Assembly: GCA_964016885.1 (NCBI GenBank)
Contig: OZ024743.1
Location: forward strand, 110,298,001 to 110,362,000
DNA: 64,000 nt
Source of the DNA: Eledone cirrhosa
Taxonomy: Eukaryota
Direction of reading: 5' to 3'
Part shown: positions 21,074 through 52,845 of the stretch, in pieces
Layout: every line of letters starts with the position of its first letter
Numbering within the stretch: position 1 is the stretch's first letter
The notes under the pieces: generated by a model
What the model was told of the DNA's origin: nothing
Database searches by the model: none
Seen by the model: the letters and a program-made list of their open reading frames with translations, nothing else
Made by a program: the position numbers and the translations under genes

Positions 21074-23813
21074 ATTTTCCTTTTGTTTCCTCATCGTTAT
21101 ATATTATATATTGTCAGGCAGGAATAGCAAAAACACTTATGTATTACATTTGTTTACTAACAATGACAAATACACTGTATCAGAAGAGAAAAATATATAG
21201 TGCTTCCGGCTTGAAGAGAATGTTGTCAAATCGAGAATGATATACTCTTTTAGCTCTAGTGGAAATTATAATGGAAAGCAATATTCAAATTGACTTTCCG
21301 ATTGTCTGATTGCAGAGAAAAGTGTAGAAACTAAATTATAGCAAAACCTCGAGGAAAAAAAAAGTAAATTCTAGATGTATACCGGGAGGTGATTGTACAA
21401 AATCTATTATCTATAATTGTATTTTCCTTCATCACAATTCAATGGCGCCAACACATATTGCATTATATATGTGTATATTTATTCCTGTATGCATGTATAT
21501 GTATAAATACAGGTATGTGTGTATGTGCTTGCATATATATATATATAAATGTATATATATATATATATATATATATATATATATATATATATATATATAT
21601 ATATATATGTGTGTGTGTGTGTGTGTGTGTGTGTGTGTGTGTGTGTGTGTGTGTGTGTGTTCACGTGTGTATATGTACATATGTACATATGTATATATGC
21701 GTGTGTGCGTGTATTTTGAAATATTCATTTATACACGGATTTACAGACATACATACTTATGCTTAAAATGCATGTAAGCTTACATGGCTTATACTTGATC
21801 TATATATGGCACAAGAAGAGAGTCTATATGAAAAACAATCTTAACAAAATTGTATATTTACTCGGTATTTCCATCGCTATGCATCTCCATCTTTGTATAT
21901 AGTCTAATTTGTCATCTCTCAGGAATTTAATATTTTATTCCATTTACAATTCCTGGAACTTGAACATAGTCGTTATTTCATGTTCAAACATTTCTGTATA
22001 GTTTCTAAACCATACTCTCTACGTCTTATTGCATTTGGTATACTAGACTCGTATGTTATACACATTTTAAAGCCCAGGAGCACAGACAACGTATTATTTG
22101 GAACATTATTGCAACGCACTGTATCCAGCTTAATTCGAAATTATATACGAAAATGTTTTGTTTCTACTGAAAGTTGATTTTCATAGAGATAAATCAAGTG
22201 GCTCATAAATCCTTGTTTCCATGTTTAAACTAAGGAAATGTATTACAATCGTTCCGGTACACATCTCTATAATATTTCAATGTTTAATGTTTTGTTTCTT
22301 TTTTTAATAATTTCTATATTCTAATTTCAAACTGTGACTATGACATATACAATCTCTATGATTGCGGCTACTCTATTGTCGTTGATTTTAAAGGCAATGA
22401 CTATGATGATAGTGTTTCAGATATTGATGATTAAGATCAGGTGGCTATTAATGAAGAATAGGACTGTAAACAAGAATCTTCAAACTATCTCTGAGAGTCT
22501 TTCCATCCGCACGGGTTACAAACTTTGTATCCATAAATCCATAGAAGATCCATACTGCAACTAATTTCCTGATGTCTCTCGTCTTCAAGAAAGTCAATTC
22601 CCTGAATTTACAACAGACAGGAGAAAAATACATTATAGTTCCTGCTAATTAACACTCTTAAATTCACAGCATTGCTAATTAATTTCCGTCTCGTTGCAAC
22701 ATAAGCTGACAATTTATATTTTCTCTTACAGAATTCCTCGATATTGATATATCATACTTCAGCTGAAGTTACATAGCTTAGTGATTTGTGTATTGGGCAC
22801 ACAATTTGTGAAATCAATTCATTGACTTGGTAGCGCGTTTTAAACTTGTGCAAAACGCTATATTTCATTGTGCTCCAGTTCATTGACCGGATTGACTAGT
22901 TCGTTGACCGATATGACTAGTTCTAATATTAGGAGACCTTTTCCTTTCCCTTTAACTTCAACGGTGATAGGGAAATGGGAGACTTGCATGCATAAGAGAC
23001 TTGATTTTGCAGATTAAAACACACTGCTAACGCGGGTGCATCAGAGAGCAACATTGTCATTGTAAAGTGATGGCCAACCATGGCCGCGGGGGCATTTGAT
23101 GTTTCATTTATGTTGCTCACAATTTACTACATCAACATTCATAATGTGTGCTCTTATTTATACATTAATCTCATACATATAATCGCAAACACATAGCTCC
23201 ATATACGCCCACATGTCAATACACCCAGTCGGTCGCAGAGTCAAAGTCCCCATGGAGGTGGGGAGAGGGTAAATGGTAGTATTCGGCGCGTTACTTTTAC
23301 TTGTGCTATTTATCCCTGACTCAATCTTGCGAGGGGGGTTGGGTTCGAGGTAGGATATCGTGCGGGTATTCGGATCACAAACCGAGGTTGGGCGCCGGGG
23401 CCCGCTGGTCGGAAACTTGGGGTGACTGTTTGCACAGAGGATAGGACTCCACCGACGTACTACGTCTATTTATATTATCTAGTGTCAGCTAACTTCTGTT
23501 CTGGTTAAGGGAGTGAGATAGAGGCGGTTGACCACAGCGGTGTGAGACATGGTTTTAGCTGCTAGGTGGGTGTGTTGCAATAGGAGTCGATCGAGGCGGG
23601 AGTAGGGGTGGATAGTGTGTAGTGGGTTGTTTACCTTGGGATCTGTGTGGCGGGACTACTGTCCCTCTAGCTTGAGGGAAGTTCACATCCCAATGTGTTG
23701 TTATTATTATCCATATAGCTTGAGGAAGGTTCCGGCCCTGAGGTGTCTATATGTACCAAATAAGTCGGTACACCTCACGGCCGGAACCTTCCTCAAGCTA
23801 TATGGATAATAAT

Positions 23814-23970
23814 TGTTTCTACTTTAGGCACAAGGCCAGCAATTAGCCAGTGCATTACTGGTACTTTATTTTATCGACACAGGCGGGATTTGAACTCAGA
23901 TCGTAAAGGGACGCAACTATGCTGGAAAGCATGGCGTCCGACTCTCTACCGATACTGCCAATCCACCGCC
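23814..23970 (-). mobile_element. tRNA-derived SINE with 16-bp TSD
   Basis: TSD ctatatggataataat at 23798-23813 and 23971-23986; A/B boxes on the minus strand. Confidence 0.9.
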
Positions 23971-24366
23971 CTATATGGATAATAATAACAGCACATTGGG
24001 AGGGGAACTTCCCTCAAGCTATAGGGACAGTATCCCAGCAGCATACTGAAGCTAACCTGCCAGCTGACACCTTAACACGACTGCCACTACCAACACAATG
24101 GAGGAGGTCAGCTGCACTTAAACATTCTGATAAAACAACTATAACAGGCTCACTTGCCTCAGTAGAATTTCTATAGACTTTTGACTGAGGAATGTTCTCA
24201 CAACTGACCAATGGGATACAACCGTGTCTCATGACGCTGAAGTTCGTTTGTTCTAGTTCCTCGGAGTAATAACAACACGCCCAGGAGCTGAACATATCGA
24301 TGTATTGACGGAGTGAAACACACTTCAACAACATGTGTACCTGTCTTTTCCACGCCAATTCGGAGA

Positions 24367-24415
24367 GCCTGAAGAGGTCACAGCCAATGATGGCTGTCAC
24401 CGAAATATATATAGC
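24367..24415 (+). ncRNA. Minimal type-I hammerhead ribozyme
   Basis: CTGAAGA-GGTCACAGCCA/ATGA/TGGCTGTCACC-GAAA-TATATA-TA; stem II is 10/11 paired, stem I is weak. Confidence 0.7.
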
Positions 24416-24662
24416 AGTAATTTTTAATTTATAGTAAACGAAGCCAAATTTTACATATTTGACTTAATTATTTTATATACATACATATATATATATATAT
24501 ATATATAATATTAAGGATACTATTTATGGTTATGTATATACTAAAACGTTTTATAGTTATATATATTTTAAGTGAAGGTCAGTAATTTAATACTACCTTA
24601 TTACCAGTAAGATAAATAGCTTAATGTAATAATATCAGTTGTTCTACAGAGCAGTTATATAG

Positions 24663-25020
24663 AATTCACAAGAATCAAAGCTATGTTCAAAGCAATCATT
24701 CACTTACAATTGTTTCATCCAAACCTATGTTTGGAGTCTTCGGAGCATTTTTCAATGTTTGTACACATAATTGACCTCCTTTCCATCGCAAGAGACATAC
24801 ATATACATATGTATATATTGATGTACAGTAATATAATATAATATATGTCACTCCACTGTACATCAATATATACATATGTATATGTATGTCTCTTGCGTTG
24901 GAAAGGAAGTCAATTATGTGTACAAACATTGAAAAATGCTCCGAATAATCCAAGCCTAGGTTTGGATGAAACAATTGTAAGTGAATAAATGCTTTGAACA
25001 TAGCTTTGATTCTTGTGAAC
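24663..25020. mobile_element. Fold-back pLTR element (~165-bp arms) with a variant hammerhead in each arm
   Basis: Inverted repeat centred near 24842; arm consensus gct-CCGAAGA-atccaaac/ctag/gtttggat-GAAA-CAATTG-TA-agt (right-arm copy 24937-24983). Confidence 0.75.
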
Positions 25021-25184
25021 TATATATATATATATATATATTAAAGAGTTAAGCAAGATTCAATGAGTACATCAAAGAACGAGTTTTCCAGTAGAGTGGA
25101 AGCACTCTACAAAAAATAATTTTCTAGAGTCATTAATATAAAAATACAAATATTAATAACATGGATCTTCTTTTGATCAATTAC

Positions 25185-51363: not shown

Positions 51364-51855
51364 ACCATCTCTGTGAATCATTCGTTCTCATTCAGAAATG
51401 TGTTTATGCATATTTCTACATTTTCCTTATTTGAAAATAGTTTCTGATTTAATAATATAACACTGTAGTTTTATTCATGCTCTTGTTTAACACGAGGCCT
51501 AGCTTGTATACTATAATATTCCCACATAATTACAATATCTATATATTCTGGAGAAATCATGATGATTTCTCCCGAATGAAACAGTTCTAGTCCTCTAGAA
51601 GCCATGTTTATATTAAATATTTATACTCTTCTATGCATTGAGTACCTTACATACTGTGGTTACCCCCGATTGAACGCGGGATAAATTTTTAAATATATAT
51701 ATATATGAGTGTATGTGGTGTCGATCTTAACCAGTTTTGCTTTAAAACTACGACAGACAAAATAATCTAAATCATTAAATTGACTCGATATCAGAGCTAT
51801 ACAACAAATTATAAAATAAGAAGTAATAGACACAGATATATACCTATTTTTACTC

Positions 51856-52196
51856 AAAGTCCCCACTGTACAATTTCGTTGGTCTGTTTGCAACAGTTTT
51901 ATATTATAGATATGCAATATCGTTGTGGGCACACCATCTCATCCTCGGGGAGAGAACGCTTTCCAGACACGTTCGCAGCAAGTGAGAAAATCTGATAAAG
52001 GGATTCAGCCCCATTTCTTGACCGGTGTAAATTTCTTTCTCCGCCTTTTGAGATTTTCTCACTTGCCGCGAACGTGTCTGTAAAGCGATTTCTCTGAGGA
52101 GTTCTTCAAAAGCTGCTGTGCCTCACAACGATATTGCACTTCCATAATGTAAACTTGTTGCAAACTGACCAGCGAATCTGTACAGTCGGGACTTTA
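51856..52196. mobile_element. Diverged fold-back/MITE-like element
   Basis: aaagtccccactgtaca...caagtgagaaaatct vs agattttctcacttg...tgtacagtcgggacttt. Confidence 0.7.
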
Positions 52197-52305
52197 AAGA
52201 AATATATATATATATATATATATATATAACGAAGGAAATGTGGTAAGGAACCAGATGGACCATAACGCACCAGATTCCTCAATACTTAGAGTAGTAGAGT
52301 GGGTA

Positions 52306-52436
52306 ATAGGAACAAGTATGACCCTGACGGCAGAGCTCAAGCCGTTTTGACGACTAATTCTGGACTCAATTCTGGAGTCCAGAACGAGCCGTCGAAATGG
52401 CTTGAGCTGTGCCGTCGGGGTCATACTTGTTCCTAT
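52306..52436. repeat. ~62-bp-arm hairpin within a short insert in (TA)n
   Basis: taggaacaagtatgaccc...ctggactc / gagtccag...gggtcatacttgttccta. Confidence 0.8.
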
Positions 52437-52555
52437 ATATATATATATATATGGATTTTAGTCTTCAAATTTATTATTATTACTATATATATATATATAT
52501 ATATATATATATATATATATATATATATATATATATATATATATATATATATATA

Positions 52556-52845
52556 AAGAAAAAGAGATGAAATCGAAAATGCAACTGGAGTCTTATTTTT
52601 TTTTTAATATATATATTTATTTGGTTCCTTTACCGGTTTCGCAGTTCTTCTGCTTTTCAAAAGGTGAGTTGAGATGGAGGGTCTGTGGTTTGAGAAAAAC
52701 CACAGGCCCTCCATTAAAAAAAAGATAAGACTCCAGTTGCATTTTCGATTTCATCTCTTTTTCTTTCTACTTTCTACTTTCTACTTTCACTCGTGTAGGA
52801 CACCGGTTATTTTTCATTTTGTAAAAAAAACCTCACTTTCTAATA
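52556..52845. mobile_element. Fold-back derivative of the Neptune-like pLTR
   Basis: Homologous to 30081-30190 and 32370-32470; inverted repeat 52556-52605 / 52716-52766; lies in (TA)n. Confidence 0.85.
52627..52664 (-). ncRNA. Minimal hammerhead ribozyme, U3:A8 core variant
   Basis: Reverse complement: CCTT-TTGAAAA-GCAG/AAGAA/CTGC-GAAA-CCGG-TA-AAGG; perfect stems I and II, palindromic CCGG. Confidence 0.78.

Follow-up and report, generated by a model that had tools for sequence, protein, structure and literature searches.

How short palindromic elements with ribozyme motifs arise is the question raised by a 64,000-nt stretch of the Eledone cirrhosa genome (GCA_964016885.1, contig OZ024743.1, positions 110,298,001 to 110,362,000 of the forward strand; hereafter the window), which has a G+C content of 36% and many (TA)n tracts. 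Between these tracts lie short fold-back elements, many with minimal hammerhead motifs, in which one arm ends at (TA)n and the opposite arm continues via a tail of ~80-157 nt. The original prediction offered two origins for them: extreme 5'-truncation and inversion of Penelope-like elements (PLEs), or a non-autonomous class of ribozyme hairpins. These two routes, truncation with inversion and the re-copying of hairpins, are not exclusive of each other. Most copies look like independent products of the first route, whereas one copy, B2 (Table 1), is better read as re-inserted RNA. This combined explanation, first-generation PLE debris plus one second-generation copy, is the one we favour and consider likely. 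Statements about published work refer to excerpts of the sources cited by accession.

One-strand A-to-G changes in B2

The two arms of B2 differ in a strongly one-sided manner. Along its axis, the 100 ungapped pairs, read on the + strand, comprise 85 Watson-Crick pairs, 14 G.T pairs, no A.C pair, and 1 other mismatch (two-sided p about 1e-4 by hand). In a local alignment, the ratio of G.T to A.C is 13:0 (p 2.4e-4, or about 0.004 after allowing for 18 arm pairs), while the other 17 arm pairs pooled hold 37 G.T, 40 A.C, and 94 transversions (Fisher p 5e-4 for transitions against transversions). B1, which aligns with B2 at 87% and forms one family with it, served as the outgroup. Polarised in this way, B2 carries 10 A>G changes on the + strand (7 in the left arm and 3 in the right) and 2 C>T changes, with 1 site uninformative. 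The unpaired tail of B2 has no G excess. Moreover, in ten copies of a dispersed repeat resembling a short interspersed nuclear element (SINE), A>G/T>C is a minority class (12 versus 36 C>T/G>A), and none of the ten contains an A>G cluster.

Because the A>G changes occupy both arms of one strand, a hairpin RNA of the + strand is required. This strand has the sense tail at its 3' end, as expected of a template for reverse transcriptase (RT). In addition, the left arm of B2 ends early, within the hammerhead, and B2 is the only copy to lack the usual outer end on its tail-less arm; a shortened arm of this kind fits a 5'-truncated copy of a hairpin. We propose that the parent fold-back was transcribed, that A-to-I hyper-editing may have altered both arms of its hairpin RNA (about 14 of ~67 As), and that the edited RNA would then have been reverse-transcribed from its 3' tail, with 5' truncation, into a (TA)n tract to give B2. 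The strand bias is what we observe, and from it we infer the action of ADAR and the re-insertion; B2 is thus probably a second-generation copy. As far as sequence can tell, the cluster supports the formation of double-stranded RNA (dsRNA) at the parent locus.

Published data provide a context for such a process. G is depleted 5' of ADAR sites across animals (PMC5625713), and in B2 none of the 13 changed As has a 5' G compared with 7 of 53 unchanged ones (p 0.20), while 8 of the 13 have a 5' U. Lizard and frog show heavy editing of Penelope RNAs, and hyper-editing is very high in octopus (PMC5625713, PMC10636886); L1 RNA was unedited in one assay (PMC5224506). The hyper-edited Penelope and palindromic repeat RNAs share with B2 the clustered A>G changes, the self-folding repeat, and the 5' G depletion; however, the published editing consists of differences between RNA and genome (PMC5625713, PMC10636886), whereas the changes in B2 sit in assembled DNA. 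Fossils of ADAR editing left through PLEs were not reported in the open-access titles and abstract openings searched, which is weak evidence of their absence, most subscription literature lying outside that scope. Among retroviruses, a provirus whose inverted repeat is reportedly hypermutated from A to G offers a precedent.

Several points weigh against the reading of B2 as edited and re-inserted RNA. The neighbour pattern of ADAR is not significant (5' G p 0.20, 5' U p 0.07, 3' G p 0.09), and a template-strand bias is absent from the other tailed copies (27 versus 21, p 0.47). A single outgroup supplies the polarity, and at 2 sites, in a gappy part of the alignment, the change reads as C>T. 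Furthermore, B2 is a single copy found post hoc, and its unedited parent hairpin is not in the window.

Survey of the fold-backs and their relation to coding PLEs

The survey covered every interval between (TA)>=5 tracts (44 scored, 5 skipped for size), and favours short elements. An inverted alignment score of at least 50 was obtained in 13 of the 44 scored intervals, the best shuffled score being 32. In seven of the 13, a TA tract lies 0-6 nt from one arm and the opposite arm is extended by 80-157 nt, and D1 displays the same one-sided extension as judged by inspection. The remaining five are two coding PLEs, one inverted SINE-like pair, and two hairpins without assignment. F1, B3, D2, and B2 were read from alignments and not scored separately, because a TA run lay inside the element, the arms were short, or the interval was shared.

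In total, the window contains 12 short fold-backs. The tail is on exactly one arm in all 11 short copies with both outer ends intact, and the hammerheads point outward in every copy that carries one, making these elements head-to-head inverted copies of a 3' end. Eight of the intervals had been predicted, and self-comparison reveals the inverted duplication in 8/8; four fold-backs (18124-18228, 49782-50035, 51707-52201, and 52229-52433) are additional. The six elements first listed as distinct in sequence reduce to five families, as 43045-43396 and 46414-46785 belong together. Likewise, four predicted left boundaries (1083, 17165, 24663, and 49525) omit the tail, with which the elements start at 952, 17071, 24508, and 49431. 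The description as non-coding applies to short, ORF-free copies, with two qualifications: 17339-17482 in E1 matches the N terminus of a Hydra-type open reading frame (ORF; profile independent E-value (iE) 8e-4), the remainder of which is absent, and 52556-52846 has a coding relative.

Table 1 Fold-back elements and coding PLEs of the window (pLTR, pseudo-long terminal repeat)
Element	Positions	Strand	Family	Features
B2	46415..46785	+	B	Perfect-centre fold-back, axis 46514/46515, duplex 46415-46614; hammerhead 46590-46638 (+); tail about 46692-46785, sense, at 3' end
B1	43047..43394		B	Tail 43047-43136 (-); half-hammerhead short arm to 43206; long arm 43207-43394 with hammerhead core at 43296
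B3	18124..18228		B	Tail and palindrome, arms ~8 nt, centre TTAA; extreme truncation product
D1	45986..46409		D	Tail 45986-46071 (-) and 338-bp palindrome (99.4%), centre ATATAT; intact hammerhead 46309-46363 (+); GAAA box altered in left arm
D2	49782..50035		D	Single arm joined straight to tail; hammerhead 49872-49820 (-); tail about 49946-50035 (+)
F1	52556..52846		F (with PLE-2)	Left arm U3-A8 hammerhead 52660-52631 (-); internal deletion in right arm takes out hammerhead; tail about 52768-52846
E2	24508..25020			Tail 24508-24662; two arms, about 24665-24826 and 24858-25019; hammerheads at 24743 (-) and 24941 (+), divergent and both U4C
H	49431..49747			Tail 49431-49528; left arm half-hammerhead; right arm broken core
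E0	952..1475			Tail 952-1085; arms 1086-1160 and 1401-1475; only GAAA-palindrome-TA half motif
E1	17071..18100			Tail 17071-17165; arms 17171-17333 and 17940-18100 (78%); decayed hammerhead
I	51707..52201			Old fold-back; 149-nt extension on one arm; no hammerhead recognised
J	52229..52433			Fold-back with 7-nt loop; one arm extended by 80 nt; no hammerhead recognised
PLE-1	25042..30078	+		Hydra-type PLE; inverted pLTR and tail 25042-25490; direct pLTR and tail 25485-26401; broken RT/GIY-YIG ORF 26467-28542; 3' pLTR 29275-30078; hammerheads 26213 and 30013 (+), mutated one at 25230 (-)
PLE-2 (F2)	30069..32470	+	F	Neptune-like PLE, 5'-truncated; arm in inverted orientation 30069-30276; 3' half of RT (broken), Cys linker, GIY-YIG 30279-31393; then pLTR end and tail to 32470

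The predicted derivation from PLEs is supported by coding relatives with the same ends, by one-sided tails, and by hammerheads. We regard it as very probable that the elements are PLE termini, composed of the 3' part of a pLTR with a minimal hammerhead and the tail. The one-sided-tail, head-to-head layout of the short copies is also present in both coding PLEs. The ORF of PLE-1 matches a family of ~700-800-aa RT/GIY-YIG proteins (profile iE 2e-105), and a full protein scan returned 2794 relatives at E<=0.001; two of the top five are octopod-named, the closer at 45% identity. A word-indexed protein search with the RT piece of PLE-1 gave no match, and Pfam named no PLE RT piece above its cut-off. 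A CxCX5C linker before the C-terminal GIY-YIG is read in the 27818-28294 frame, where the Pfam match to GIY-YIG is weak (E 0.055). At the DKT motif PLE-1 has DRT, and its RWK region is broken. Among 38 long relatives, CxCx5C is found in 15, DK[TS] in 25, DKG in 0, and RWK in 7.

PLE-2 matches a 744-aa RT and GIY-YIG protein (P0151, with DKG, GTAMG, and YIGQT) at a tblastn E of 1e-42, and its translation runs from RT through a CX2-5CxxC linker to GIY-YIG. F1 is a short member of this coding family, because its sequence matches both ends of PLE-2 (80% and 92%). A diverged family F relative with the same U3-A8 core region lies at 42600-43002, in direct orientation with a small internal duplication. 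A family member encoding RT and GIY-YIG thus exists for F, and in part for E1.

The tails provide a further link. Of 15 tail entries, 9 contain the word GAG[TA]GCT, which in most cases closes a TACTC stem; these entries represent five families including PLE-1, and 9 of the 15 GAG[TA]GCT sites in the window fall in tails. It is common to the tails of PLE-1, B, D, E1, and H, and the shared tail stem is a candidate recognition site for the RT. The termini appear to stem from several Hydra-type families and one Neptune-like family, with B, D, and H provisionally assigned as Hydra-type by the tail motif only. Against a PLE origin of every copy stand the absence of the tail word from I, J, E2, and family F, and the lack of a coding member in the window for B, D, E0, E2, H, I, and J. 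The supplement of PMC8557442 has 10 matches to GAG[TA]GCT, none displayed in a Hydra tail context, and is therefore uninformative here. Two other TA-bounded segments contain this stem, with no hammerhead or inverted arm scored in either: 46800-47393 (-) has two direct copies of TACTC...GAGTG, and 49125-49407 (+) has one variant copy.

Hammerheads and predicted folding

A minimal-hammerhead descriptor with a perfect core finds 5 sites in the window versus 0 in 20 shuffles: 26213 and 30013 in PLE-1, and 46309, 46590, and 49872. Allowing one mismatch gives 2 sites (shuffle mean 0.4), and allowing two gives 7 (shuffle mean 4.6), which is near chance. No hammerhead family is among the 118 Rfam matches at E<=1, and only sub-threshold miRNA-like hairpins were returned. 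A hammerhead or half-hammerhead had been predicted in each listed element. This holds for the intact motifs at 46309 and 46590 and in weaker form elsewhere: 43296 has a perfect core with a weak stem II, 52660 a U3-A8 core, 24663-25020 a U4C in both arms, and 49525-49750 a broken core. By eye only, the motif of 17165-18105 is decayed and the first half of that in 1083-1478 is not recognisable. Overall, the minimal type I hammerhead is partial or absent in E0, E1, H, B3, I, and J. By eye, hammerheads also appear lost from tail-bearing arms.

In whole-element transcripts, the hammerhead is predicted to be sequestered by pairing with the upstream antisense arm. The probability of stem II is 0.0 in 6/6 whole-element folds, versus 0.27-1.0 for five of six arms alone. 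F1 is an exception, its hammerhead being free in the fold (0.94) because the segment that would pair with it is deleted. Monomer folding is a weak proxy for hammerheads that act as dimers, a point against sequestration as predicted, and the motif of PLE-1 itself scored 0.03; minimal hammerheads are reported to require dimers and to cleave weakly (PMC4209133). The suggestion of a hairpin class driven by its ribozyme is not supported by these folds or by the arrangement of the units, which are head-to-head and not tandem. The hammerheads would rather be passengers, as on either strand an antisense arm precedes and may pair with the sense arm. Cleavage by the hammerhead was rejected as the source of arm ends, since the half-hammerhead arms have their start upstream of the cut site, within stem II.

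Breakpoints and formation of the fold-backs

It had been proposed that shared breakpoints would mark propagated units and unique ones independent truncations. Within the window, none of the five copy pairs in families B, D, and F shares its full structure, and one (D1/D2) shares a tip. In family B, the tail end coincides to within a few nt in all three copies and each copy has its own junction; the two copies of family F also have different junctions. Because structures and tips mostly differ within families, most copies look like independent truncation and inversion products, as judged from their sequences; one-arm tails and coding relatives agree with this origin. The identical tip of D1 and D2, and the starts of B1 and B2 within 14 nt of each other, stand against it, as random truncation predicts neither. 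Shared breakpoints alone do not discriminate, however: shared tips would equally be expected if the RT ran off at a fixed RNA 5' end or if joining favoured a TA microhomology hotspot.

For these copies, we propose that a PLE RT/GIY-YIG protein would nick both strands of a (TA)n tract and that each 3' end would prime a cDNA at one of two start sites bracketing the tail. Both cDNAs would halt after ~10-800 nt and then presumably be linked head-to-head, the junction often falling in a short self-complementary word. The junction centres of D1, B2, and B3 are such words, and two short cDNAs, one per start site, would produce the observed layout. The anole PLE cuts and extends both strands of AT-rich DNA, its RT starts at two internal sites bracketing the tail, and a dimer is predicted; its insertion in vitro is independent of hammerhead cleavage (PMC11167929). 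Antisense self-priming has been proposed for head-to-head PLE repeats, with the template polarity left unresolved in the excerpt of PMC3846280. Snap-back synthesis from one cDNA was rejected as a general model: in five copies (E0, E1, B1, H, and D2), the tail-less arm holds sequence missing from the opposite arm. Three tail-bearing arms from three families (43135-43206, 1086-1160, and 49529-49596) end inside stem II of the hammerhead or its loop, possibly a common site of RT stalling.

The 5' ends of other arms cluster upstream of the hammerhead core, at -68 (D1 twice, D2), -75 (B2 twice), -83 (E2 twice), and -89 (B1), which could reflect a fixed RNA 5' end. Shared or nearly shared tips would then be due to RT run-off, like strong-stop DNA, and an internal pLTR promoter would be placed about 70-90 nt upstream of the hammerhead. 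The internal initiation of RT (PMC11167929) and the internal promoter of the D. virilis Penelope (PMC2377424) agree with this idea, which is compatible with our favoured explanation. We advance it tentatively, however, as the ends of further arms lie at -37, -260, -728, or within stem II and the interval survey is biased to short elements.

A more far-reaching alternative sees in the fold-backs an established non-autonomous class that has master hairpins, most copies deriving from hairpin RNAs and losing arms later by deletion. The editing signature of B2 would be expected under this view, as would the identical tip of D1 and D2 at -68 between unrelated flanks and the deletions in the tail-bearing arms of F1 and F2. 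In addition, pLTRs suffice for mobilisation in trans (PMC3846280), and a fold-back retains the terminal tail, which may render its hairpin transcript usable as a template in trans. However, the tips differ in B and F, the extra sequence in the tail-less arms of E0, E1, B1, H, and D2 is not accounted for, the editing bias is confined to B2, and a sequestered hammerhead would not drive the cycle. We consider a class of this kind conceivable but doubtful.

Alternative readings of B2 and of the fold-backs

Our preferred reading of B2 as a re-inserted, edited hairpin was weighed against three alternatives. In the first, all copies including B2 are first-generation debris that was never re-mobilised, and the bias in B2 reflects a chance cluster or an odd DNA mutation event. 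Such a view would be consistent with the absence of fully shared structures (0/5 pairs) and of significant strand bias in 17 of the 18 arm pairs, and the layout is fully covered by the literature. It is nevertheless unlikely. DNA mutation in the window is strand-symmetric (37 versus 40) and A>G/T>C changes are a minority in the SINE-like copies, whereas B2 stands at 14:0 with 1 transversion; moreover, where two cDNAs are made from sense RNA, A>G changes should not be able to arise in both on a single genomic strand.

Second, edited RNA reads or a read-error mode may have entered the assembly consensus. The heavy editing of PLE RNA in lizard and frog and the very high hyper-editing in octopus would make such reads available, but only 1 of 18 arm pairs is affected, and the shortened tail-less arm of B2 is an independent sign of a second insertion round. 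RNA reads as a source would still mean a real edited dsRNA hairpin. An artefact is therefore improbable in our view. Third, B2 could have been retained by selection as a structured host RNA in which only G.U-compatible changes survived. The + strand folds far better than the - strand (-162.6 versus -123.9 kcal/mol). However, the local mutation spectrum predicts an A>G share of 0.37, under which the probability of at least 10 of 12 is 0.0013, and B2 is a truncated repeat within a transposon nest, so that selection is very improbable. Finally, for the fold-backs as a whole, MITEs (miniature transposable elements with inverted repeats) or fold-back DNA transposons inserting at TA, though likewise short, non-coding, palindromic, and TA-flanked, are scarcely credible, being contradicted for B, D, E1, and F by hammerheads and coding PLE relatives and by inverted repeats that are not at both termini but leave an 80-157 nt extension on one side; the MITE reading is least excluded for I and J.

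Other repeats in the window

The SINE-like repeat of ~150-200 nt is present in about ten copies, often beside (ATT)n, including those at 2583, 7758, 11388, 14428, 23814, 50456-50681, 50939-51363, 54447, and 61565. An inverted pair of them at 50527-51208 could likewise form dsRNA. The hairpin 23652-24036 was considered as a member of the fold-back group and rejected, having ~125-nt arms split by a SINE-like insert (23814-23974) without the tail and TA layout. Its similarity beyond these arms is at shuffle level (75.6 versus a mean of 76.5), and it joins two unrelated sequences. After it, at 24369-24420, a lone hammerhead-like motif precedes a TA tract. A further isolated motif at 1607-1672, between TA tracts and in single copy, has its core at 1624; its stem I measures 13 bp, an additional base follows the cut site, and misfolding is predicted. 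Older inverted repeats lie at 43452-44129, with a GAAA-palindrome-TA half motif, and at 48762-48863.

A second dispersed repeat (69-74% identity) links 35037-35897 with 59069-60275 and 343-875 with 60009-60540. A broken non-LTR retrotransposon, which we take to be L1/Tx1-like, occupies 38162-42485 (RVT_1 E 1.5e-19, weak endonuclease match), with weak 66% matches at 8449-8675 and 13335-13688. The 239-aa frame at 47744-48463 (-) is without a Pfam match and presumably resembles the C-terminal nuclease region of a retrotransposon. ARAGORN found no tRNA in the window.

Comparison with known systems and implications

In architecture, the fold-backs are ordinary PLE debris of a kind on record since 2013-2014. 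Palindromic head-to-head junctions and pLTR-driven mobilisation in trans have been reported (PMC3846280), as have inverted 5'-truncated PLE copies with a one-sided tail (PMC8557442). The fold-backs share with these insertions the inverted 5'-truncated pLTR, the junction palindrome, the one-sided tail, the microsatellite target, and the microhomology deletions. Compared with the truncated PLEs in these excerpts, however, they are cut to 100-500 bp without an ORF, their tails measure ~80-157 nt as against 30-40 bp, and one copy (B2) shows signs of passage through an edited hairpin RNA. The combination of a long tail with a shared stem and an edited second-generation copy goes beyond the published descriptions consulted.

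Similarly, minimal hammerheads occur in Schistosoma as pairs, one on each strand and 100-700 bp apart, and truncated PLEs are given as their source (PMC4209133). Spacing, orientation, palindromic stem III, and the U3-A8 core (family F here) are the same; tails, tips, and re-mobilisation, which are treated here, are not analysed for Schistosoma in the excerpt of that report. In the Hydra clade of PLEs with a C-terminal endonuclease (EN+), a CxCx5C linker is diagnostic and almost all families insert in (TA)n (PMC8557442). PLE-1 shares the linker, the C-terminal GIY-YIG, the hammerheads, and the (TA)n flanks, E1 keeps the start of the ORF, and B, D, H, and E1 carry the tail word of PLE-1; PLE-1 differs in being broken and in its DRT. 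Non-LTR retrozymes (bioRxiv 10.64898/2026.07.22.740005) are likewise non-coding, pLTR-derived, and dependent on a PLE protein, and have a type I hammerhead. They are, however, head-to-tail tandems with at least two same-sense hammerheads, whereas the fold-backs are head-to-head with a ribozyme predicted to be sequestered. Membership among the retrozymes was rejected, the window having inverted units and no tandem array with same-sense hammerheads.

It is possible, although we put it forward only as a speculation, that PLE fold-backs in general are a recycling non-autonomous class, in which the tail stem lets the PLE RT re-copy ADAR-edited hairpins so that the edits become heritable. If so, the side bearing the G.T pairs would record the template strand of each insertion. 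In B2, a retrotransposon RT would have carried RNA edits over into genomic DNA, and the sequence of this copy suggests both hairpin dsRNA in the germ line and re-insertion of the hairpin as a whole. Editing scars would mark the template strand, in B2 the one whose 3' end carries the sense tail, and would offer a handle on the template polarity of PLEs. B2 may thus make template polarity and hairpin recycling testable from genome sequence.

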